From a virus (lineage: Duplodnaviria; Heunggongvirae; Uroviricota; Caudoviricetes): DNA of 25,050 nt. The notes under the pieces were generated by a model. The model searched no databases. It saw only the letters and a list, made by a program, of their open reading frames with translations, and was not told where the DNA came from. Positions 3,893 through 16,352 of this stretch are shown piece after piece. The first letter of the stretch is position 1; each line of letters opens with the position of its first letter. The position numbers and the translations under genes were made by a program. The DNA is taken from IMG/VR virus record IMGVR_UViG_2778261084_000006, positions 1 through 25,050 of that record; one strand, 5' to 3'.

Positions 3893-4164
3893 GTATTCGT
3901 ATTGAAATTGGCGAACGTTATGTCGTTACCAGTGACAGCTTTCAGTTTATTCTCCACGAGAAAAAGAGAGCGGAAAGCGGTAAAAACGCCGGTCAGGAAT
4001 GGCTGGCGGTGGTTGGTTATTACCCGAAATTAAGCCAGCTCGTTTCCGGCCTGATGCATCACGATATTCTGACCGGAAGCGCAAAATCTTTTGCCGATTT
4101 AAACGTGCAGGTTGAGCAACTCAGCAGGCGTTGTTCAGAGGCTTTTGGCTCATATGGACGTTAA
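3889..4164 (+). CDS. small early-operon hypothetical protein (P2 orf83-like position)
   Basis: ATGA overlap with upstream stop; ggagaacgg RBS; 3' end overlaps the A start. Confidence 0.5.
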   Translation: MSIRIEIGERYVVTSDSFQFILHEKKRAESGKNAGQEWLAVVGYYPKLSQLVSGLMHHDILTGSAKSFADLNVQVEQLSRRCSEAFGSYGR

Positions 4165-6439
4165 AGCCTCCGGGCGTTTTGTCCCTCCGTCAGCATTTGC
4201 CGCAGGCACCGGTAAGACGTTTACCGGTGCTTATGCATGGAACGCGCCACGCGAGGCTGTCGGGCGCGAAAGACCCCTTACACGTGACGAGATGCGTCAG
4301 GTGCAAGGTGTTTTATCCACGATAAATCGCCTGCCTTATTTTTTGCGCTCGCTGTTTACTTCACGCTATGACTACATCCGGCGCAATAAAAGCCCGGTGC
4401 ACGGGTTTTATTTCCTCACATCCACTTTTCAGCGTCGTTTATGGCCGCGCATTGAGCGTGTGAATCAGCGCCATGAAATGAACACCGACGCGTCGTTGCT
4501 GTTTCTGGCAGAGCGTGACCATTATGCGCGCCTGCCGGGAATGAATGACAAGGAGCTGAAAAGGTTTGCCGCCCGTATCTCATCGCAGCTTTTCATGATG
4601 TATGAGGAACTCTGCGATGCCTGGGTGGATGCGCATGGCGAAAAAGAATCGCTGTTTACGGATGAGGCGCAGGCGTATCTGTATGGTCATGTTGCTGGCG
4701 CTGCACGTGCTTTCAATATTTCCCCGCTTTACTGGAAAAAATACCGTAAAGGACAGATGACCACGAGGCAGGCATATTCTGCCATTGCCCGTCTGTTTAA
4801 CGATGAGTGGTGGACTCATCAGCTTAAAGGCCAGCGTATGCGCTGGCATGAGGCGTTATTGATAGCTGTCGGGGAGGTCAATAAAGACCGTTCTCCTTAT
4901 GCCAGTAAACATGCCATTCGGGATGTGCGTGCGCGCCGTCAGGCAAATCTGGAGTTTCTTAAATCGTGTGACCTTGAAAACAGGGAAACCGGCGAACGCA
5001 TCGACCTTATCAGTAAGGTGATGGGCAGTATTTCTAATCCTGAAATTCGCCGGATGGAGCTGATGAACACCATTGCCGGTATTGAGCGTTACGCCGCCGC
5101 AGAGGGTGATGTGGGGATGTTTATCACGCTGACCGCGCCGTCAAAGTATCACCCGACACGTCAGGTCGGAAAAGGCGAAAGTAAAACCGTCCAGCTTAAT
5201 CACGGCTGGAATGATGAGGCATTTAATCCGAAGGATGCGCAGCGTTATCTCTGCCGTATCTGGAGCCTGATGCGCACGGCATTCAAGGATAATGATTTAC
5301 AGGTCTACGGTTTGCGAGTCGTCGAGCCACACCACGACGGAACGCCGCACTGGCATATGATGCTTTTTTGTAATCCACGCCAGCGTAACCAGATTATCGA
5401 AATCATGCGTCGCTACGCGCTCAAAGAGGATGGCGACGAAAGAGGAGCTGCGCGAAACCGTTTTCAGGCAAAACACCTTAACCGGGGCGGTGCTGCGGGA
5501 TATATCGCGAAATACATTTCAAAAAACATCGACGGCTATGCACTGGATGGTCAGCTCGATAACGATACCGGCAGGCCGCTGAAAGACACCGCCGCGGCTG
5601 TTACCGCATGGGCGTCAACGTGGCGCATCCCGCAATTTAAAACGGTTGGCCTGCCGACAATGGGGGCTTACCGTGAACTACGCAAATTGCCGCGCGGCGT
5701 CAGCATTGCTGATGAGTTTGACGAGCGCGTCGAGGCTGCACGCGCCGCCGCAGACAGTGGCGATTTTGCGTTGTATATCAGCGCGCAGGGTGGGGCAAAT
5801 GTCCCGCGCGATTGTCAGACTGTCAGAGTCGCCCGTAGCCCGTCGGATGACGTTAACGAGTACGAGGAAGAAGTCGAGAGAGTGGTCGGCATTTACGCGC
5901 CGCATCTCGGCGCGCGTCATATTCATATCACCAGAACGACGGACTGGCGCATTGTGCCGAAAGTTCCGGTCGTTGAGCCTTTGACTTTAAAAAGCGGCAT
6001 CGCCGCGCCTCGGAGTCCTGTCAATAACTGTGGAAAGCTCACCGGTGGTGATACTTCGTTACCGGCTCCCACACCTTCTGAGCACGCCGCAGCAGTGCTT
6101 AATCTGGTTGATGACGGTGTTATTGAATGGAATGAACCGGAGGTCGTGAGGGCGCTCAGGGGCGCATTAAAACACGACCTGCGAACGCCAAACCGTCAGC
6201 AAAGAAACGGAAGCCCGTTAAAACCACATGAAATTGCACCATCGGCCAGACTGACCCGGTCGGAAAGAATGCAAATTACCCGTATCCGCGTTGACCTTGC
6301 TCAGAACGGTATCAGGCCACAGCGATGGGAGCTTGAGGCGCTGGCGCGGGGAGCGACCATAAATTATGGCGGGAAAAAATTCACGTATCCGGTCACTGAT
6401 GAGTGGCCGGGATTCTCAACAGTAATGGAGTGGACATAA
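4154..6439 (+). CDS. A: rolling-circle replication initiator gpA (HUH endonuclease), 761 aa
   Basis: HUH-type motif HHDGTPHWHMMLF and tandem-tyrosine motif AGYIAKYISKNIDGY; first ATG at 4154 (MDVKASG...) gives 761 aa; track ORF starts at TTG 4112. Confidence 0.9.
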   Translation: MDVKASGRFVPPSAFAAGTGKTFTGAYAWNAPREAVGRERPLTRDEMRQVQGVLSTINRLPYFLRSLFTSRYDYIRRNKSPVHGFYFLTSTFQRRLWPRIERVNQRHEMNTDASLLFLAERDHYARLPGMNDKELKRFAARISSQLFMMYEELCDAWVDAHGEKESLFTDEAQAYLYGHVAGAARAFNISPLYWKKYRKGQMTTRQAYSAIARLFNDEWWTHQLKGQRMRWHEALLIAVGEVNKDRSPYASKHAIRDVRARRQANLEFLKSCDLENRETGERIDLISKVMGSISNPEIRRMELMNTIAGIERYAAAEGDVGMFITLTAPSKYHPTRQVGKGESKTVQLNHGWNDEAFNPKDAQRYLCRIWSLMRTAFKDNDLQVYGLRVVEPHHDGTPHWHMMLFCNPRQRNQIIEIMRRYALKEDGDERGAARNRFQAKHLNRGGAAGYIAKYISKNIDGYALDGQLDNDTGRPLKDTAAAVTAWASTWRIPQFKTVGLPTMGAYRELRKLPRGVSIADEFDERVEAARAAADSGDFALYISAQGGANVPRDCQTVRVARSPSDDVNEYEEEVERVVGIYAPHLGARHIHITRTTDWRIVPKVPVVEPLTLKSGIAAPRSPVNNCGKLTGGDTSLPAPTPSEHAAAVLNLVDDGVIEWNEPEVVRALRGALKHDLRTPNRQQRNGSPLKPHEIAPSARLTRSERMQITRIRVDLAQNGIRPQRWELEALARGATINYGGKKFTYPVTDEWPGFSTVMEWT

Positions 6440-6592
6440 TGGCAAAAATTCACGCAATATTAGATAATTTCGTACTGTATATATTTAGTGTTATTGAAAA
6501 ATCTCGACAGAAAGAGTTTTCTGTATTTAATCGTTGCTTGCAGTTTGGTATTGTTTACCATGATTGTTTGTTAAGTGCTTTAAAGGTGAGGA

Positions 6593-8431
6593 ATGAGCGA
6601 GTTTGATGTTTTTTCTATTTCAGTTGATGATTTTAAAAAAAGTGAATACGCCAGTATATTATCATCGCCAAGAAGTTATTCTCATTTTGATATGGAGTCT
6701 TATTTTGTTCAGTTGTTGTCATCTTACAAGCTAAAAAACGATGTAAGTTCTTGGCGGCTTTGCTATTTATTACGTGCGTTGTTTAATTTTAAATTTTCTA
6801 GGTCTGGTGATATTATCGGTTTTGAGCCAAAAATCATTCTCTATCCTGAGAGGGGCTATAGGCCTTCAGATTATAAGGAGAGTTTTTCAACAATATTAAC
6901 TTGTATTAAAGAAAACTCCGATAATCCTTATATTATATCTAGGGTGTGTGATGTTTTATGGATAAATAACCGTAAGGATATAGACTCTGCCAATAAAGCA
7001 ATAGAGTCATATTCTCTAATGGTTAATGATGCTTGCGATACTTTAATAGAAAAACAAGAGTCAGGTGATATCCATATTTTTGATGTTGTTGACTGCTTGG
7101 ATAGAGGTATCGCAATATCGCGCATGCTTATTGGCAGGAAAAAACAACTACAAGGGGGGATAGTTGATTCGACATTAAGGTTATATCATGTATTAATAGA
7201 CTCTGGTATATTCACCGGTGTATTAAGAGTTTCTGAAATTCTTTATAAGAATAATTTATTGTGTCCCTTGCAATTGGCTGAGAATGCAGAAAAGATAGCT
7301 GATGAGCATTGTGGAGCGTCTTATTTTGATGCAGTGAAAAAATTGTTTTATTTTGCGTCTGAATTATATGTTAAAAACGATATGGAAGAGCAAGGAAGAC
7401 GGTGCAGAATTAAAGCGTCAGAAATAACATTGGCTCAATTTGAACAGTCTTCATCTTCAATATTGAAGGCTCATTGGTTAAGAGTTGCTCTTGGCGAATT
7501 TAGAGCAATTGGTGGAATGAATGAAGAAATTAAAAAGATTAGAGAGGAATTGAATTCTATTCGAGATCAAATTAATGATGAAATGCACTTCTTTGCAATA
7601 CCAATGGATCTTAGTGATGTTATCGCTCAGAAAGAGCATGTTTATAATCAATTGGATTTCTCAAGGGTAATTAAAACTTTAATTGCTAGATTTAAGATTG
7701 TAAGTGCCAGTGAAATTATGGAAAGAGCTCGTTCCGATGCTAAAAAACATTTTTTTCTTAATATGAGTGAAACGGTTGTTTATGATGATAGAGGGCGCGT
7801 TGTAGCAAGTCGTTCACCTTTGGATCCTGCGGGGGATATAAGTTTAAATGATGCTTGTGCAAATTATTTAAGAACTAGTAACATTGAGCATCAGGTCTAT
7901 GTTTGTGGTGAGTTTGAAGTCGTTAGGCAAAGTGTGTTGGCTAGGTATTCATTAAATGAAAATACATTTGACCCAATCTCACAACAAAGTGCATTTGTTC
8001 CACCTGGGTATGCAGAAATATTTTCTTTGGGGTTTTATAAGCTTTGGCAGGGAGATTATGTGTCTGCCTGTTATTTGTTATTGCCGCAATTGGAGAATTC
8101 AATTAGATGGATTTTAGAATTAAGAAGAAAAGAAACAACGAAAATAGATGTGTCGCTTTTTGAGGAGGCTACTAGCCTATCTCAAATGCTTGCAAATTAT
8201 AGGAGTGAAATGGAAGGTGTTTTTGATAGTGATCATGTATTGACTATGGATTTATTGTTCAATATGAAAGGTGGTGCTGCAATTAGACACACGATGGCTC
8301 ATGGCAGGTATACTGTAAATCATTGTTATCAACCAACTTCAGTTTTTGCCTGTGTCTTTATCTTTTATTTAACTTGTTTGCCTTTATTTAGTGTATGGGA
8401 AGATAAAGTTGAACCTTATCTGGCTGATTAA
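6593..8431 (+). CDS. cargo protein of unknown function, 612 aa, in the A-to-cos variable locus; possible HEPN-like motif and C-terminal hydrophobic anchor
   Basis: long ORF in visibly AT-rich DNA with aaggtgagg RBS; no Walker A motif (so not an Old-type ATPase); GGAAIRHTMAHG (Rx4H) near C-terminus followed by hydrophobic SVFACVFIFYLTCLPLFSVW. Confidence 0.7.
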   Translation: MSEFDVFSISVDDFKKSEYASILSSPRSYSHFDMESYFVQLLSSYKLKNDVSSWRLCYLLRALFNFKFSRSGDIIGFEPKIILYPERGYRPSDYKESFSTILTCIKENSDNPYIISRVCDVLWINNRKDIDSANKAIESYSLMVNDACDTLIEKQESGDIHIFDVVDCLDRGIAISRMLIGRKKQLQGGIVDSTLRLYHVLIDSGIFTGVLRVSEILYKNNLLCPLQLAENAEKIADEHCGASYFDAVKKLFYFASELYVKNDMEEQGRRCRIKASEITLAQFEQSSSSILKAHWLRVALGEFRAIGGMNEEIKKIREELNSIRDQINDEMHFFAIPMDLSDVIAQKEHVYNQLDFSRVIKTLIARFKIVSASEIMERARSDAKKHFFLNMSETVVYDDRGRVVASRSPLDPAGDISLNDACANYLRTSNIEHQVYVCGEFEVVRQSVLARYSLNENTFDPISQQSAFVPPGYAEIFSLGFYKLWQGDYVSACYLLLPQLENSIRWILELRRKETTKIDVSLFEEATSLSQMLANYRSEMEGVFDSDHVLTMDLLFNMKGGAAIRHTMAHGRYTVNHCYQPTSVFACVFIFYLTCLPLFSVWEDKVEPYLAD

Positions 8432-8592
8432 TGGAAGTTGATTTAGGTATTTTGGCATTTATCTTTCTGCGTGCAATATGTGCATGGTTTTGCATGTGCC
8501 GGAGTTGCATGTTCCGGCCGTGCGTCCGCCAGGACGGGCGTGGCTCAAAAGCGGTATTGCACTTGCATTAAAACCGCCCCACGAAGCGGGCG

Positions 8593-8611
8593 GGCGAGGC
8601 GGGGAAAGCAC
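8593..8611 (+). other. putative cos cohesive-end sequence (ggcgaggcggggaaagcac)
   Basis: 19-mer matches my recollection of the P2 cohesive end; lies between the A-side cargo and Q as expected for the P2 genome end; not verifiable here. Confidence 0.55.
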
Positions 8612-8744
8612 TGCGCGCAATGATGTCAGTTTGAGGGCATCAGGCATGGGGACACTACACAGTTTCATTTTTGTTATTAATTGTTTATCATATAAGTGTT
8701 TGTTTTTTGAACGGCATGTCGTGTGCTATATGGAGTGAATAGAA

Positions 8745-9014
8745 GTGACTAAATTTGACAAAAAAAAAGCAATTTCTATTTTAACAGAAAAAAAAGCCTT
8801 GCTCCCATGTCATCGGTGTGGAAATTCAAAGTTCATCATTTTGGATGGCATATCATCACTTCCATTAATGGAAAATATGGAAATGATTGGTAGTATTGTT
8901 GTTGGCGGAATGAATGCTCCTGTATTACATGTGGCATGTGAGAATTGTGGTGCAGTTACTTCACATTTGCTTGGGGCACTTGGTTTAATGCCGGAGATTA
9001 AATCAAATGACTAA
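8745..9014 (+). CDS. small zinc-ribbon protein (CxxC...CxxC), hypothetical cargo
   Basis: 89 aa from GTG start with ggagtg RBS; CHRCGN ... CENCGA cysteine pairs; last 8 nt overlap the next ORF. Confidence 0.6.
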   Translation: MTKFDKKKAISILTEKKALLPCHRCGNSKFIILDGISSLPLMENMEMIGSIVVGGMNAPVLHVACENCGAVTSHLLGALGLMPEIKSND

Positions 9015-9477
9015 GGATGTTTTTTTCTCTGATGAAGGTAGTGGTAAAAAAAGTGCTGTCTTGCATGGGGCGCAGGTTACAATAAACCCTGATTCGCAAT
9101 TTACAAAAAAGATAATTAGGCAGACTGAGGTTGATGTTATTGTGATAAGTGATGATAAACTTCATATAATTTTGACGAATTGCTTATCTAAAATTGCATC
9201 ATTAAACCGCTGGTCAACACCTTTGGGTATTTTAATTACCTTGGCGGTAACTATGTTAACCACAAATTTTAAGAATTTTATTCTTCAGGATTCTGTGTGG
9301 GAGGCTGTTTTCTGGATGCTTATTTTTTTTAATATTATCTGGTTGGTGAAAAACATTCCATATAGACACTTATTTTTAACTGTTTGTCATTCTATAGGGG
9401 TTCGTAAAGATAAAAAAAGAATTAGTGATGTATACCACATTATAGATATAATTAAACAAGGTGATACACGCTTTTGA
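9007..9477 (+). CDS. small membrane protein with two predicted TM helices, hypothetical cargo
   Basis: 156 aa; hydrophobic segments WSTPLGILITLAVTMLTTNF and WEAVFWMLIFFNIIWLV; start overlaps upstream stop (translational coupling); AT-rich. Confidence 0.6.
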   Translation: MTKDVFFSDEGSGKKSAVLHGAQVTINPDSQFTKKIIRQTEVDVIVISDDKLHIILTNCLSKIASLNRWSTPLGILITLAVTMLTTNFKNFILQDSVWEAVFWMLIFFNIIWLVKNIPYRHLFLTVCHSIGVRKDKKRISDVYHIIDIIKQGDTRF

Positions 9478-9510
9478 TTTAATATCAATATTTGATTGAG
9501 TATATAATAA

Positions 9511-9533
9511 AGCCGCCTGAGTTTATGGCGGCT
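9511..9533. terminator. bidirectional hairpin between convergent cargo gene and Q
   Basis: stem agccgcc / ggcggct with 9-nt loop, flanked by A/T-rich runs on both sides. Confidence 0.45.
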
Positions 9534-9553
9534 AATATAGGGTGTGTGCTAAG

Positions 9554-10573
9554 TCATAATGTGTATTTGTTGAATCTAATTATTTCTTCGCCAACCCATT
9601 CATTAAGGGCAATAAAGCGAGATTGAATAGGAGTAAGCTCATTGCGGACAAAGACCTTTGCCACTTTCTCAATATCACCCAGTGACCCGACGTTCTCCGG
9701 CTTGCCGCCCATCAACTGAAAGGGGATGCGGTGCGCGTCCAGCAGGTCAGCGGCGCTGGCTTTTTTGATATTAAAAAAATCGTCCTTCGTCGCCACTTCA
9801 CTGAGGGGGATAATTTTAATGCCGTCGGCTTTCCCCTGTGGGGCATAGAGAAACAGGTTTTTAAAGTTGTTGCGGCCTTTCGACTTGACCATGTTTTCGC
9901 GAAGCATTTCGATATCGTTGCGATCCTGCACGGCATCAGTGACGTACATGATGTATCCGGCATGAGCGCCGTTTTCGTAATACTTGCGGCGGAACAGCGT
10001 GGCCGACTCATTCAGCCAGGCAGAGTTAAGGGCGCTGAGATATTCCGGCAGGCCGTACAGCTCCTGATTAATATCGGGCTCCAGCAGGTGAAACACGGAG
10101 CCGGGCGCGAAGGCTGTCGGCTCGTTGAAGGACGGCACCCACCAGTAAACATCCTCTTCCACGCCACGACGGGTATATTTTGCCGGTGAGGTTTCCAGTC
10201 TGATGACCTTACCGGTGGTGCTGTAACGCTTTTCCAGAAACGCATTACCGAACACCAGAAAATCCAGCACAAAGCGGCTGAAATCCTGCTGGGAAAGCCA
10301 CGGATGCGGAATAAACGTTGAAGCCAGAATATTGCGTTTAACGTAAATCGGCGAGCTGTGATGCACGGCAGCACGCAGGCTTTTTGCCAGACCGGTAAAG
10401 CTGACCGGTGGCTCATACCATCTGCCGTTACTGATGCACTCGACGTAATCCAGAATGTCACGGCGGTCGAGAACCGGCACCGGCTCGCCAAAGGTGAATG
10501 CCTCCATTTTCGGGGCGCTGGCGGTCATTTTTTTTGCCGCTGGTCGCGGTGTTTTCCCTTTTTTCTTGCTCAT
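9554..10573 (-). CDS. Q: portal protein gpQ (P2-like)
   Basis: 339 aa, MSKKKGKTPRPAAKK...; Q start overlaps P stop (ATGA) as in P2. Confidence 0.9.
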   Translation of the reverse strand: MSKKKGKTPRPAAKKMTASAPKMEAFTFGEPVPVLDRRDILDYVECISNGRWYEPPVSFTGLAKSLRAAVHHSSPIYVKRNILASTFIPHPWLSQQDFSRFVLDFLVFGNAFLEKRYSTTGKVIRLETSPAKYTRRGVEEDVYWWVPSFNEPTAFAPGSVFHLLEPDINQELYGLPEYLSALNSAWLNESATLFRRKYYENGAHAGYIMYVTDAVQDRNDIEMLRENMVKSKGRNNFKNLFLYAPQGKADGIKIIPLSEVATKDDFFNIKKASAADLLDAHRIPFQLMGGKPENVGSLGDIEKVAKVFVRNELTPIQSRFIALNEWVGEEIIRFNKYTL

Positions 10574-11250
10574 CAGTAAAACTCCAGAATGGTGGATGTC
10601 AGCGGAGTGCTGATACCCGCGGTGAGTGGCTCATTTAACAGGGCGTGCATGGTCGCCCAGGCGAGGTCGGCGTGGCTGGCTTCCTCGCTGCGGCTGGCCT
10701 CATAGGTGGCGCTGCGTCCGCTGCTGGTCATGGTCTTGCGGATAGCCATAAACGAGCTGGTGATGTCGGTGGCGCTGACGTCATATTCCAGACAGCCACG
10801 GCGGATGACGTCTTTTGCCTTGAGCACCATTGCGGTTTTCATTTCCGGCGTGTAGCGGATATCGCGCGCGGCGGGATAGAACGAGCGCACGAGCTGGAAC
10901 ACGCCGACACCGAGGCCGGTGGCATCAATACCGATGTATTCAACGTTATATTTTTCGGTGAGTTTGCGGATGGATTCCGCCTGGGTGGCAAAGTCCATGC
11001 CTTTCCACTGGTGACGCTCAAGTATTCTGAATTTGCCACCGGCCACCACCGGCGGTGCCAGTACCACGCATCCGGCGCTGTCGCCACGGTGTGACGGGTC
11101 GTAACCAATCCATACCGGACGTGAGCCGAACGGATTGGCGGCAAACGGCGCATAGTCTTCCCATTCTTCCAGCGTGTCGACCATGCAGCGTTGCAGCTCC
11201 TCGACCCGAATTTTGCTACCACCATGACTAATGCGCTTGCGGGTAAGCAA
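10573..11250 (-). pseudogene. P: terminase large subunit gpP, 5'-truncated (C-terminal ~225-237 codons only)
   Basis: C-terminal nuclease-domain-like sequence (WIGYDPSHRGDSAGCVVLAPP...YIGIDATGLGVGVF); frame closed by an in-frame stop at 11287-11289; full P2 gpP is ~590 aa; upstream DNA is tail-fibre coding on the other strand. Confidence 0.8.
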
Positions 11251-12318
11251 CCGAAAGATGCCACTTTGACGGCGCTGGCGGGGCTTGCTACTGCGGCAGA
11301 CAGGTTTCCGTATTTTACGGGGAATGATGTTGCCAGCCTGGCGACCCTGACAAAAGTCGGGCGGGATATTCTGGCTAAATCGACCGTTGCCGCCGTTATC
11401 GAATATCTCGGTTTACAGGAAACGGTAAACCGAGCCGGGAACGCCGTGCAAAAAAATGGCGATACCTTGTCCGGTGGACTTACTTTTGAAAACGACTCAA
11501 TCCTTGCCTGGATTCGAAATACTGACTGGGCGAAGATTGGATTTAAAAATGATGCCGATGGTGACACTGATTCATACATGTGGTTTGAAACGGGGGATAA
11601 CGGCAATGAATATTTCAAATGGAGAAGTCGCCAGAGCACCACAACAAAAGACCTGATGAATCTTAAATGGGATGCTCTGTATGTTCTTGTTAAAGCCCTT
11701 TTCAGCAGTGAAGTAAAAATATCTACAGTCAATGCGCTGAGGATATTTAATTCATCTTTTGGTGCTATTTTTCGCCGTTCTGAAGAAAACCTGTATATCA
11801 TTCCTACACGAGAAAATGAGGGTGAAAATGGAGATATTGGGCCATTAAGGCCATTCGGCATCAACTTAAGAACAGGAGTTGTGTCTGTTGGTAATGGTGC
11901 CAGGATTGATGGCGGGCTGGCACTTGGCACGAATAACGCGTTGGGTGGGAACTCTATTGTTCTTGGTGATAACGACACCGGATTTAAACAAAATGGCGAT
12001 GGTAATCTGGATGTTTATGCTAATAACGTCCATGTTATGCGCTTTGTTTCCGGAAGCATTCAAAGTAATAAGACCATAAATATTACGGGGCGTGTTAATC
12101 CCTCGGATTACGGTAACTTTGATTCCCGCTATGTGAGAGATATCAGACTTGGCACACGTGTTGTCCAGACCATGCAGAAAGGGGTGATGTATGAGAAAGC
12201 AGGGCACGTAATTACCGGGCTTGGTATTGTCGGTGAAGTCGATGGTGATGACCCCGCAGTATTCAGGCCAATACAAAAATACATCAATGGCACATGGTAT
12301 AACGTCGCACAGGTGTAA
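11191..12318 (+). pseudogene. H: tail fibre gpH-like, 5'-truncated (C-terminal ~365 aa)
   Basis: conserved tail-fibre block NALAGKQPKDATLTALAGLATAADRFPYFTGNDVASLATL begins at ~11230; ORF opens at TTG 11191 inside P-derived DNA; followed by tail fibre assembly gene. Confidence 0.75.
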
Positions 12319-12321
12319 TTT

Positions 12322-12849
12322 ATGCAGCATTTAAAAAATATTACTGCGGGTAATCCAAAAACTGTTGCCCAATATCAACTGACAAAAAATTTTGATGTTA
12401 TCTGGTTATGGTCCGAAGAGGGAAAAAACTGGTATGAGGAAGTAAGTAATTTTCAGGAAGACACGATAAAGATTGTTTACGACGAGAATAATATAATTGT
12501 CGGCATCACCAGAGATGCTTCAACGCTTAACCCTGAAGGTTTCAGCGTTGTCGAGGTTCCTGATATTACCTCCAACCGACGTGCTGATGACTCAGGTAAA
12601 TGGATGTTTAAGGATGGTGCCGTGATTAAGCGGATTTATACGGCAGATGAACAGGAGCAACAGGCAGAATCACAAAAGGCAGCTTTACTTTCCGAAGCTG
12701 AATCCGTGATTTTGCCGCTGGAACGCGCTGTCAGGCTGAATATGGCGACGGATGAGGAACGCAGCCGACTGGAAGCATGGGAACGCTACAGCGTTCTGGT
12801 CAGTCGTGTGGATCCTGCAAATCCCGAATGGCCGGAAATGCCGCAATAA
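12322..12849 (+). CDS. G: tail fibre assembly chaperone gpG
   Basis: 175 aa, [41 protein letters not shown] ... [12 protein letters not shown]; matches my recollection of P2 gpG. Confidence 0.9.
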
Positions 12850-13117: not shown

Positions 13118-14140
13118 ATGCGTAGAGTAGTAATTGACACAAATATTTTATATGCTCTGACTGGAGTTTCTGTGAATGAAAAGGTGGTAACTTCGAGTCT
13201 TAATGATTTTAAGCTATCCATAACCACCCCATCAATTATAGAGATGGTTGTTAAATTTCAATATGATTTAGATACAATAAAGAAATGCCTCGAACCTATC
13301 ATAAATGAAAGCATTGAGCTCATTAGCATAGGTCACGCCCCAATTCCGAATGAATATCTTTACATGTTACACTTCGCGAAGGAAATAGAAGAAGTTACAG
13401 ATCTCATTGATGAGATTAAAACGTTAAAAATCTCCAGGGAAGCTGAATTCTACAGGTTTATACTTATATTAGTTGTTTCTGGGTTATTTGAGGTTATTAG
13501 AGAGGATGGCTACAAATTTTGTGATGAGGCACGAAATCAAAAACAATTAATGATGGTGCGTTCTTTATTTGAGTCTAACATGGATCTAATATTAGATTAC
13601 TTTAAAGATGAAATACGTAATGGATATATGAATGGAAATGAACAACAAGCTGCCCTAGATGCTTTCCAAAGTAAAATAATCATGTTATTAAATATTTTTC
13701 ATATAAATTATCATATGATTAAAACCGATACATTTCCTTATAATGAATCCTCGGTGAACCTTGAGAACTTAATCACTAGTTTAGATAGTGATTGCTTTAA
13801 CATAAAACTTAAAAAATACATCGATAATCCTTTATTTTTTGCATCTAAAGCAAAATACAATTCGATAATAAATAATTATATGGCAGAAATGAGAAATGGA
13901 ATGCTAGATTTGAGTGGACTCACTGAGAAGTCTATGGATTTCCTATTGAATAAGATTGACAGTGCTTATAAAAATGGCAGGAAGTTGCGAAAAAATGACA
14001 TATTTGATTTCCTGATTGTTATTTCCTTAAACATGCCAGACACTTTGATTGTTACACTTGATAAAGGTTTCCTGAAAGATCTTGAACATCTTGATTATAA
14101 TAGCTACCAACTTTGTCAAAAGTTAGGCTATATAAATTGA
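13118..14140 (+). CDS. PIN-like domain protein (putative nuclease), 340 aa, cargo in G-to-FI variable locus
   Basis: N-terminus MRRVVIDTNILYAL (PIN first strand with Asp), downstream PSIIEMVVKF (second acidic), C-terminal LIVTLDKGF (PIN TxD..F-like); AT-rich; agtgagg RBS. Confidence 0.6.
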   Translation: MRRVVIDTNILYALTGVSVNEKVVTSSLNDFKLSITTPSIIEMVVKFQYDLDTIKKCLEPIINESIELISIGHAPIPNEYLYMLHFAKEIEEVTDLIDEIKTLKISREAEFYRFILILVVSGLFEVIREDGYKFCDEARNQKQLMMVRSLFESNMDLILDYFKDEIRNGYMNGNEQQAALDAFQSKIIMLLNIFHINYHMIKTDTFPYNESSVNLENLITSLDSDCFNIKLKKYIDNPLFFASKAKYNSIINNYMAEMRNGMLDLSGLTEKSMDFLLNKIDSAYKNGRKLRKNDIFDFLIVISLNMPDTLIVTLDKGFLKDLEHLDYNSYQLCQKLGYIN

Positions 14141-14348
14141 AACTTTCAGTGAATGTAATGAAACCATTACACCAACTTTTAGATGACTCTGGATAAGACA
14201 ACAGTAAGAATAATTGCAGAGGTCCTCTTTTCGCTCATAGCAGCCCTCGCGGCGCTTCAGACGGTCTGCTTCGTGCTGGAGCGGACCTAAGTGCCTAGCT
14301 ATGAGTGGCACGACAGAATACAATGTAAAATAAAATACCCTTGCAGGG

Positions 14349-15407
14349 ATGAAAATAATGATTGAACCGTTTAGTTGGGAAAATTGGAAGCAAGTATACC
14401 TACATAAAAAAAACAAGAAGCGAGTTTCTCTTGAACGATACGGATTGAGAAGTCTTCACTCTGTCGCCAGCTTGGACTTAATCGTATCAAAAGTTCATGA
14501 ATTATATTTAAAAAAACAGCAAGAAGTGGCTGTTAATGCTAAATCTGTTTGGATAGATGGAACTCCTCAGGCTAAATTCAAGAGTGTCGATGGCTCTGTC
14601 TTAAACTGCGAATTGGCGGATCTTCTGTTTATTATTCACGAGATGGATAATAAAAACAAAACAATAAATTTTCGAGCTACCTTATTACAAGGTAAGTGTT
14701 CTGAGAAACATAATTTACTCCCAAATGGACCTTCGACAGATAAAGAAAGAAAACTGCTCGAATCTATCGATCGCAATGAGTATTTGTACTTATACCCAGG
14801 CACGAGGGCATACGGAGAAAAAATAGGGAAATATAAATTAGGCGGGGAGAACATCGGATTAGCGGACTGTGCGAAATATTTAATTATGCCTAAATATGAA
14901 AGATGGAAATATAAAACACCTGATAATATATCTCCTTACGTAATTGGCTGGCCAAACAAAATATCATCCAATTATTTAACCAATGTTGTAAATTACATGG
15001 ATGTAATTCTTGAAAAAATGATTTCATCAAAGACCATGGGAAAGGAAATAAATTTAACGATGCAAAACCATATAGACAGGCAATGTGAGTGGTCAAAAAT
15101 GATTTATGATTTGTTAAATAGCTACTTACCGATAACAATGAAGGGCTATGACTCCCAACGAAGAGTATATAAGTCAAGTTTATTTGACGATAATATGTCT
15201 GCTACATTAGCATTGATTAATAATGGTCACTGTGATTTCATAAGTAAACATGCTTTTAAAGACTTGCCTAAAGGTAAGGGTAGGTTTTTATATCAACATA
15301 CATTAAATATTCTTGGGGATTACTCTAGCCCCGTTATTTCAACAATATATATCCAAATCAAACAAAAGGAAGGGGAAATATATCGTCAATCTCTTGGGGT
15401 TGATTGA
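14349..15407 (+). CDS. hypothetical protein, 352 aa, cargo
   Basis: long AT-rich ORF on same strand as the PIN-like gene; no motif recognised; alternative start at 14358. Confidence 0.6.
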   Translation: MKIMIEPFSWENWKQVYLHKKNKKRVSLERYGLRSLHSVASLDLIVSKVHELYLKKQQEVAVNAKSVWIDGTPQAKFKSVDGSVLNCELADLLFIIHEMDNKNKTINFRATLLQGKCSEKHNLLPNGPSTDKERKLLESIDRNEYLYLYPGTRAYGEKIGKYKLGGENIGLADCAKYLIMPKYERWKYKTPDNISPYVIGWPNKISSNYLTNVVNYMDVILEKMISSKTMGKEINLTMQNHIDRQCEWSKMIYDLLNSYLPITMKGYDSQRRVYKSSLFDDNMSATLALINNGHCDFISKHAFKDLPKGKGRFLYQHTLNILGDYSSPVISTIYIQIKQKEGEIYRQSLGVD

Positions 15408-15655
15408 GTTAGGAGTAACTGTTTGCTAAAGACTATATTTCCACTCTTGACGAGAATAATAAGATGCTCGGTTTTATTAGCAGAGTTATTTTAAAATTCA
15501 ATTCAGAAAGATATGATTGTGTTTAGGCTTAGGTCCACTCCTCGCTCATAGCAGACCTGATAATGTTCTGTCGATCAGTGGGTTCAAGAAAAGGACTATT
15601 AATCATCAACTATTAGTTGACCATTATCGTCATCGAAAATATTAGGTAAAAAATT

Positions 15656-15694
15656 GAGCCACAGACAAAAATATATTGAATTAACCTGTGGCTC
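15656..15694 (-). terminator. hairpin downstream of the GNAT gene (stem gagccacag / ctgtggctc, 21-nt loop)
   Basis: perfect 9-bp stem; on the minus strand it is followed by a T-run (complement of aaaaaatt); long loop lowers confidence. Confidence 0.4.
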
Positions 15695-15701
15695 TTTAAC
15701 A

Positions 15702-16352
15702 TTAGAGGTACATGCTCATCGGTATGCCTTGCCCTGCCTCAAGAGCAGCTTTACCTATCCATGTATCATGAACAACAAATCCATATTTTTCAAAATGCTT
15801 CTTGAGTGGTATGTCCGCAGCGGTAAGATATATTTCCTCAATGCCTTCTTGCTTACAATACTGTATGGCGTTTTCCAGAAGTTCGGCGAAAAGCCCAAGG
15901 CCATGATATTCTTGGAAGTCATATTTTTGAGGGATTACTGGTTCGTAGGGATTTACAAGCATTACATCAACGATCATTAAAATATTAGGGTAGGAATGTG
16001 CTAATATGAGCTCTACCGTCTCTTTATCATCCAGTTCTGGATCCTGAACCTCTCCATGTACATATAAAATATCTTTAATAACATTTTCATTTATATGTTT
16101 TGACACTTTTTTATATAGTAGCGGGTTATTAGTTTGGCATTCCCTTCCAAATATAAACTTATCTTGGTTAGGATTTGCATTGCAGAAACGGTCCCACGCT
16201 GCAATACCTATCTGAAAAAGATCATTTGGTTTATTTCTTACAAGGAATTCTATTCGCTCAATTCCATATTCTATGAATTTTACTGGATTAGTAAATTTTT
16301 TTGTTATTGATTCAGAAGGAAGTATAGCGTTTAATCTTCTCTGGTTTTCCAT
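15702..16352 (-). CDS. GNAT-family N-acetyltransferase, 216 aa, cargo
   Basis: acetyl-CoA-binding motif A region EYHGLGLFAELLENAIQYCKQEGIEEIYLTAAD and C-terminal KKHFEKYGF typical of GNAT fold; ATG with aggtg RBS; convergent with the 352-aa ORF. Confidence 0.7.
   Translation of the reverse strand: MENQRRLNAILPSESITKKFTNPVKFIEYGIERIEFLVRNKPNDLFQIGIAAWDRFCNANPNQDKFIFGRECQTNNPLLYKKVSKHINENVIKDILYVHGEVQDPELDDKETVELILAHSYPNILMIVDVMLVNPYEPVIPQKYDFQEYHGLGLFAELLENAIQYCKQEGIEEIYLTAADIPLKKHFEKYGFVVHDTWIGKAALEAGQGIPMSMYL

Follow-up and report, generated by a model that had tools for sequence, protein, structure and literature searches.

A stand-alone DUF7380-DUF4209 cargo gene of a P2-like prophage with the hallmarks of a HEPN-type RNase and a possible role in phage defence

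The DNA analysed here, referred to below as the window, is the 25,050-nucleotide stretch formed by positions 1 to 25,050 of IMG/VR record IMGVR_UViG_2778261084_000006; it contains a P2-like prophage in which the slot between replication gene A and the cos site holds a single open reading frame (ORF) encoding 612 residues, ORF612. The C-terminal part of the ORF612 protein, about 140 residues, displays all the sequence features that mark a HEPN RNase as catalytically active, and we are highly confident that the protein belongs to the DUF7380-DUF4209 family and has a HEPN-type domain. An anti-phage role is slightly favoured by the evidence considered below; for the complete statement, that ORF612 is a stand-alone DUF7380-DUF4209 cargo gene of a P2-like prophage whose product is a HEPN RNase acting in phage defence, the balance appears to be even.

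An earlier note on this DNA had described the product as an unknown protein, a description that has to be withdrawn, as ORF612 is a member of PADLOC family PDC-S39 and is system #55 of the P2 hotspot surveyed by Rousset et al. 2022. Both PDC-S39 models match the protein at full length (residues 8-600 of 612; E = 2e-68 and 1e-67), the Pfam family DUF7380 (PF24098) matches its N-terminal region with 86.9 bits against a gathering cut-off of 27, and phrog_5183, a family of unassigned function, matches with 1088 bits. The protein is 100% identical to WP_001288417, and the DNA is 99.8% identical to ORF612 of P2-EC46. No match to the protein was found in NCBIfam, nor was one found to the protein or the family profile in the PDB sequence set. 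DUF4209 is matched by homologues that are 51% identical to ORF612, over the homologous segment. A word-indexed homology search returned 12 clusters, the distant ones with DUF7380 and DUF4209, and the two domains are carried together by 10 of 12 relatives and by all 78 of the diverse members that were scanned. A second word-indexed search, seeded with the alignment, gave no further sequences; an exhaustive profile search over 1.84 billion representatives yielded 5,870 relatives at E ≤ 0.001 (2,073 at E ≤ 1e-30) from bacteria and archaea, nearly all of them 590-640 residues long and matching end to end.

The earlier note had also pointed to a HEPN-like motif, RHTMAH, near the C terminus, and this proposal gains considerably from the family: the motif is invariant in its key residues, it is accompanied by an E-x3-R motif and by a polar residue after the Arg, and the relatives carry DUF4209. 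It should be recognized that a bare Rx4-6H match is meaningless, as the ORF612 protein contains four and at least one is present in 91% of shuffled proteins, and the motif was therefore judged by conservation. Across an alignment of 96 members, which are 14-52% identical to the ORF612 protein, only six residues are invariant (Arg171, Pro498, Glu501, Arg565, His570, and Gly571), and Arg505 and Ala569 are at least 90% conserved. Arg565 and His570 lie within the peptide GGAAIRHTMAHG (residues 560-571), the family consensus being GPNLRNxxAHGLL, and both are invariant also in alignments of 12 and of 78 sequences, the latter a subset that reproduces the conservation result obtained with 96 members. 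According to Anantharaman et al. 2013 (PMC3710099), the hallmarks of active HEPN domains are the Rx4-6H motif, an Asn, Asp, or His directly after the Arg, and an upstream acidic residue, typically within E-x3-[KR]. All three are present in ORF612, where the residue after the motif Arg is His566 (Asn in the family consensus), and they are among the most conserved positions of the entire 612-residue protein. In the same survey DUF4209 appears under the name "C6orf70" among the HEPN families; it is predicted there to be active, and its bacterial members are described as fused to TPR and located in restriction-modification (R-M) operons.

The models show the ORF612 protein as all helical, with helical repeats predicted for the N-terminal two-thirds (DUF7380 and the central region) and a candidate HEPN-type fold at the C terminus. 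The AlphaFold2 model of the full-length protein has a predicted local distance difference test score (pLDDT) of 81.5, and in Foldseek it returned TPR/solenoid matches only, none of which was significant; matches of this type fall in the N-terminal two-thirds, and weak SNAP/TPR Pfam matches are found in relatives. In a separate model of residues 408-612 (pLDDT 83, predicted template modelling score (pTM) 0.83), a helix pair bearing the E-x3-R motif comes first, and a low-confidence, poorly conserved insert, one more helix, the loop with Rx4H, and a final long helix come after it. This order, with its insert, fits the published HEPN topology, a four-helix up-down bundle in which helices 2 and 3 are often separated by a variable insert. 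We infer that the DUF7380 region is a sensor or regulatory region. It contains a group of conserved residues, Arg117, Asp120, and Trp123 (6941..6961), Tyr140 (7010..7012), and Arg171 (7103..7105), the last of which is one of the six invariant positions; a scaffold of helical repeats and nothing else would not usually show such a near-invariant patch of polar and aromatic residues, which suggests a second functional site that may bind a ligand or RNA or contact the HEPN domain. The features of the gene and its boundaries are collected in Table 1.

Table 1. Features of ORF612 and of the locus in which it lies (positions in the window)
Feature	Position	Strand	Basis or remark
P2 replication gene A	4112..6439		upstream boundary gene
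Ribosome-binding site AAGG, 6 nt 5' of ATG	6583..6586	+	sequence; AM157366 annotates a ribosome-binding site at the same position
ORF612 coding sequence (612 residues and stop; ATG start)	6593..8431	+	ORF listing; DUF7380-DUF4209 / PADLOC PDC-S39 member
DUF7380 domain, residues 8-184, predicted helical	6614..7144	+	PF24098, E = 1.9e-24; conservation; AlphaFold2 model all helical
Predicted central helical TPR/SNAP-like region and variable linker, residues 185-470	7145..8002	+	AlphaFold2; Foldseek; Pfam in relatives
C-terminal HEPN-type (DUF4209 / C6orf70 family) domain, residues 471-612	8003..8428	+	DUF4209 matches of relatives cover the segment
E-x3-R motif, Glu501-Asn-Ser-Ile-Arg505 (secondary acidic motif of HEPN active sites)	8093..8107	+	Glu501 invariant, Arg505 at least 90% (96 sequences)
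Rx4H motif, Arg565-His-Thr-Met-Ala-His570	8285..8302	+	family consensus R-N-x-x-A-H-G; Arg565, His570, and Gly571 invariant
Last helix, residues 581-610, including hydrophobic stretch 583-601	8333..8422	+	read as HEPN helix-4, not as an anchor
P2 cos core GGCGAGGCGGGGAAAGCAC, downstream boundary of the ORF612 cargo slot	8593..8611	+	exact match; 0.01 expected by chance
Portal gene	9554..10573	-	

A comparison of ORF612 with an E. coli allele of 91% identity shows that the gene is under purifying selection (dN/dS, the ratio of nonsynonymous to synonymous divergence, 0.22). Amino acid changes between the two alleles number 5 in the 142 residues of the HEPN region, 28 in the 185 of the DUF7380 region, and 26 in the 140 of residues 331-470; dN is highest in the last of these segments, and the HEPN region is the most constrained. 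Synonymous divergence is about 0.3-0.4 over most of the gene and 0.01-0.07 at 8120..8392 (codons 511-600), and this drop near cos suggests a recent recombination breakpoint inside ORF612, with the 3' end and cos sharing a younger history.

The location of the gene is as the earlier note had it. An ATG-initiated, AT-rich ORF is present in the slot between gene A and cos that is the tin/old position of P2, its GC content being about 34% (0.33-0.36 over 6500-8500) versus 0.51-0.57 in the flanking gene A and portal genes, and the distance from its stop codon to cos, 162 bp, is identical in three other E. coli loci. The protein is not an Old-type ATPase, again in agreement with that note: a Walker A motif is absent, neither an ATPase nor a TOPRIM domain was matched in Pfam or PADLOC, and this identity is rejected. 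A scan of positions 6300-9600 against Rfam gave no match, and a scan for promoters and terminators gave 13 sites versus 8.8 ± 3.1 expected, which is not above chance, and no promoter claim is made.

ORF612 is rare in E. coli, with 21 carriers among 5426 complete genomes, and this supports the view that it is hotspot cargo, as the earlier note had proposed in taking it for a replacement of old and tin, and not part of the P2 backbone. Four other E. coli genomes (Table 2) show that the A-to-cos slot and the slot between cos and the portal gene are filled independently of one another, and homologues of 52% and 35% identity also lie at this P2 site, next to yet different genes. In SWHEFF_58 the A-to-cos slot holds an 864-residue SIR2-family protein on the opposite strand (L054 954..3548), which matches the PADLOC SIR2-pAgo-associated and PDC-S65 models.

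Table 2. Occupancy of the two P2 cargo slots in four E. coli loci
Genome	Gene A to cos	cos to portal gene
ECC-1470	ORF612	89/156-residue gene pair
VE-V10-F	ORF612 (allele of 91% DNA identity), sole cargo	empty
GN02461	ORF612 (identical protein)	retron Ec48
SWHEFF_58	SIR2-family protein	89/156-residue gene pair

Outside this hotspot, the neighbourhood of the family was surveyed in 44 diverse loci obtained with the 12-sequence alignment, which span Proteobacteria, Firmicutes, Cyanobacteria, Chloroflexi, Verrucomicrobia, Actinobacteria, and Methanosarcina. These loci have no neighbour family in common, and an obligatory partner gene is rejected on this basis. Genes that recur nearby encode type I R-M subunits, other methylases, integrases, and transposases; in two loci (L015 and L023) the gene is embedded in the arrangement hsdM-hsdS-[gene]-hsdR, and in two others (L041 and L027) it is flanked by methylases. 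ORF612 is thus an autonomous, mobile, stand-alone module, bounded by cos, that is found in defence-hotspot contexts and, in the wider family, in R-M-embedded ones.

Two further neighbours were seen in parts of the family. In two separate P2-like lineages, a PDC-S31 (DUF2971-like) protein follows a PDC-S39 homologue in the same A-to-cos slot (L008 9852..10760, L003 9849..10760, and L004 10714..11529), with a gap of 7 bp in L008 and L003; PDC-S31 is another PADLOC candidate, of which the window contains no gene, and the two may be co-resident or cooperating. A homologue of about 22% identity (P0011) is followed by a 111-residue SLATT_5 / RT-associated-SLATT-like membrane protein (L006 10028..10363 and L007 8558..8893); on the two contigs that were inspected, P0011 is the only homologue that it adjoins, and SLATT is rejected as a general partner of the family.

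Several characterized or nominated systems can be compared with ORF612. It is a full-length member of PDC-S39, a family that occurs in type I R-M operons, but PDC-S39 is itself a computational candidate, and at the present locus the gene is prophage cargo rather than R-M-embedded. Payne et al. 2024 (10.1101/2024.01.29.577857) nominated the PDCs because they are embedded in BREX, DISARM, or type I R-M operons ("guilt-by-embedding"); such embedding is seen for members of the family, whereas ORF612 itself lies in a prophage. The single-gene HEPN system HEC-08 validated in the same study, which loses defence upon mutation of the Rx4-6H histidine, resembles ORF612 in being a single protein with one HEPN domain and a non-catalytic region that was found through embedding in defence operons, and ORF612 is proposed to act in a like manner. 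It differs in belonging to another HEPN family (DUF3644-HEPN), in the N-terminal location of the HEPN domain, and in having zinc fingers in place of helical repeats; no sequence relationship between HEC-08 and ORF612 was detected, the PADLOC scan giving PDC-S39 only. With the C6orf70/ERMARD family (DUF4209, PF13910) ORF612 shares the C-terminal Ex3R ... RNxxAHG core, and the bacterial members of that family have TPR-like fusions and lie in R-M operons, but its eukaryotic members are endoplasmic reticulum (ER) membrane proteins with other domains, and the activity of the members is predicted (PMC3710099).

Old and Tin of P2 occupy the same slot as ORF612 and exclude other phages; Old differs in being an ATPase-TOPRIM nuclease, of which ORF612 has neither domain and to which it shows no similarity. 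The prrC gene belongs to a type I R-M operon, in which it lies between hsdS and hsdR. PrrC and RloC are, like the predicted products of the ORF612 family, HEPN-type RNase effectors, and the position of prrC is that taken by the family members in L015 and L023. Both, however, have an N-terminal ABC-ATPase, whereas ORF612 has no Walker A motif or ATPase match.

If ORF612 is a defence RNase, its product would be made from the prophage in the lysogen and would at first be inactive. Like other HEPN RNases, it would need two HEPN domains to come together in order to build a composite Rx4H active site. When a competing phage infects the cell, a phage product or a phage-induced change might be sensed by the helical-repeat region, upon which the HEPN site would be released or assembled, and the active enzyme would cut cellular and/or phage RNA (tRNA, rRNA, or mRNA) in a metal-free reaction that leaves 2',3'-cyclic phosphate ends. 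Translation would then stop and the infection abort, so that the lysogen population and the prophage would be protected.

A number of observations count against identifying ORF612 as a HEPN RNase of phage defence. The ORF612 protein itself gives no match to Pfam DUF4209 (PF13910) at E ≤ 1, being too diverged, and its membership of that family is therefore transitive and not direct; no weak match to any other HEPN-clan Pfam family was found among the 78 members scanned. Foldseek with the C-terminal model against the PDB and the BFVD viral library gave 0 matches at E ≤ 0.001; two HEPN structures, Csm6' (8pe3) and TM0613 (1o3u), are among the best TM-scores but have E values of about 1-3. The search for a HEPN fold advised in the earlier note thus gave an order of helices that fits HEPN and no significant match to a solved structure. 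In the proposed mechanism, N-terminal sensing and HEPN dimerisation are steps that we infer. PDC systems are listed among the "145 untested" candidates of Payne et al. 2024 (10.1101/2024.01.29.577857), and a literature search found no reported experiment on the ORF612 protein or on DUF4209, DUF7380, or PDC-S39. Finally, one relative has been assayed. In Table S5 of Rousset et al. 2022 (PMC9122126), WP_001288417 is P2-hotspot system #55, "DUF4209," with 76 occurrences, and a sister protein is system #13, also "DUF4209," with 193. The same study cloned the sister protein from E. coli S88 as pFR103, "Putative HEPN," which is listed among the "additional tested systems" of Table S2B, the validated set being that of Table S2A. 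Its main text reports activity for three of eight extra P2 systems, pFR103 not among them, and no defence is reported for this S88 paralogue against a panel of 8 phages (PMC9122126). System #55, which is the same protein as ORF612, was outside the set cloned for assay, and pFR103, despite having the same architecture and coming from the same P2 A-to-Q hotspot, is 28% identical to the ORF612 protein over the 399 residues available; because of this low identity, the negative result transfers only weakly.

The S88 result, as the only test of the family at the P2 hotspot, is also the first argument for a different reading, in which ORF612 encodes a HEPN-type RNase that is not anti-phage and serves, for example, as a toxin-like addiction or competition factor stabilising the prophage or as an RNA-processing or regulatory factor of use to phage or host. 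In about one-quarter of P2 hotspots the cargo is of a non-defence kind, partition systems being one case, and toxins are present in about 2% (PMC9122126), and the eukaryotic relatives have been proposed to function in RNA degradation and not in immunity (PMC3710099). We nevertheless regard such a role as unlikely. The distribution of ORF612 is patchy and mobile, it exchanges position with old/tin and SIR2, and no conserved antitoxin-like partner accompanies the family in the 44 loci, while embedding in type I R-M operons is a criterion that has had a high validation rate for other candidates (Payne et al. 2024); the panel of 8 phages was small and the paralogue tested with it, as noted, is distant.

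A second alternative, suggested by the earlier note, is that of a membrane-tethered HEPN RNase, in which the C-terminal helix would be an inner-membrane tail anchor and RNA would be cut at the membrane. The hydrophobic stretch on which this proposal was founded is indeed present: residues 583-601 have a Kyte-Doolittle value of 2.17 and include no charged residue, and the Hessa insertion energy of residues 584-602 is about −0.04 kcal/mol, which is borderline, the most hydrophobic of the 96 members and the only value below 0. A tether would accord with the entry of "1 TM" (transmembrane) for the sister P2 DUF4209 protein in the table of Rousset et al. (PMC9122126) and with the description of the eukaryotic C6orf70 branch as ER transmembrane proteins (PMC3710099). 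The same helix, however, directly follows the catalytic Rx4H loop, where helix-4 of a HEPN domain must be; its hydrophobic core is modelled at pLDDT 92-94 within a compact domain, and Tyr585 and Trp588 within it are at least 90% conserved across the family. In 84 of the 96 relatives, moreover, the insertion energy predicted for the homologous helix is more than 3 kcal/mol (median 5.3), and an Arg or Lys is usually present in it, so that the transmembrane prediction, borderline for the ORF612 allele, does not extend to its family. One helix cannot serve both as the core of a catalytic domain and as a transmembrane span. The hydrophobic helix is therefore best read as HEPN helix-4, a membrane anchor not being a feature of the family, and the case for a tether, now weak, leaves us thinking it improbable.

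An equally improbable alternative is that the conserved Arg, His, and Glu residues do not form an RNase site and that the HEPN label is wrong, the C terminus being a non-catalytic helical binding module or some other enzyme. The structural search just described, which matched no solved HEPN domain significantly, would be expected from such a protein, as would the absence of sequence matches to PDB chains and of cross-matches to other HEPN Pfam families, and it should be noted that the HEPN assignment of DUF4209 depends on one computational survey (PMC3710099). Against this, three independent HEPN hallmarks coincide at the most conserved positions of a 612-residue protein, the predicted order of secondary structure fits HEPN down to the variable insert, and two HEPN proteins are among the top TM-scoring solved structures.

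The cos-to-portal slot of the window contains a translationally overlapped pair of low-GC genes on the + strand (8745..9014 and 9007..9477), which encode an 89-residue CxxC...CxxC zinc-ribbon-like protein and a 156-residue protein with two hydrophobic helices; neither protein has a Pfam or PADLOC match. The pair, whose two genes always occur together, is found in 8 of 5426 E. coli genomes, and it and ORF612 each occur without the other; in Klebsiella the pair is flanked by tail gene S and baseplate gene V, and in Proteus it is outside any recognisable prophage. It is a candidate for a small module of defence or moron type that has not been described before, and it is arguably more novel than ORF612. 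That ORF612 and this pair form one three-gene system is highly improbable: all three genes are low in GC, share a strand, and co-occur in ECC-1470 and in the Rousset locus table, but cos lies between them, which places ORF612 and the pair at opposite ends of the packaged genome; 2 of the pair's 8 carriers lack ORF612 and 15 of the 21 ORF612 carriers lack the pair; ORF612 is found alone (VE-V10-F) or with retron Ec48 (GN02461); and the pair is found with SIR2 instead, at another P2 site in Klebsiella, or away from prophages in Proteus. A three-gene operon is accordingly contradicted by the position of cos and by the independent distribution of its supposed parts.

Elsewhere in the window, the terminase gene is reduced to its C-terminal RNaseH-like domain (10573..11250, − strand), and the remnant abuts a C-terminal fragment of a tail-fibre gene (11191..12318), which is followed by a tail-fibre assembly gene (12322..12849). 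The prophage of the window is defective (10573..12849), lacking genes for capsid, lysis, and baseplate that the intact ECC-1470 prophage has. The Z/fun position (13118..16352), which is the second cargo site of P2 and is bordered by the genes for tail-fibre assembly and tail sheath, holds three ORFs of 30-38% GC, which may be another uncharacterised cassette; two on the + strand encode 340 and 352 residues and have no Pfam or PADLOC match, and one on the − strand encodes 216 residues with a weak match to GNAT acetyltransferases.

The protein, the HEPN prediction, and its candidacy as a defence gene are already in the literature and in PADLOC, and the window gives no new kind of system; a literature search on DUF7380, ORF612, and P2-EC46 returned nothing relevant. 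What the present analysis adds is residue-level conservation evidence for the predicted HEPN active site, evidence for the "TM" helix being a core helix within the HEPN domain, and the demonstration that ORF612 is an autonomous module bounded by cos.

The P2 hotspot, with its two slots, would offer a convenient natural test bed, as ORF612 is found there by itself or together with a retron, and in one case SIR2 takes its place. If ORF612 protects lysogens, a large family, comprising thousands of clusters and having no solved structure, would become a characterized single-protein RNase defence. A broader view, which we put forward only as a speculation and consider doubtful, is that DUF7380-DUF4209 proteins are a widespread single-protein immune sensor-RNase (about 5,900 clusters from bacteria and archaea, both on prophages and within R-M operons), in which the HEPN core would be ancestral to that of ERMARD/C6orf70 and the patch of Arg117, Asp120, Trp123, and Arg171 would be a new infection sensor. 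The eukaryotic relative ERMARD has been linked to human disease, and, were the sensor-RNase view correct, the family would represent another bacterial defence module that is conserved up to humans.

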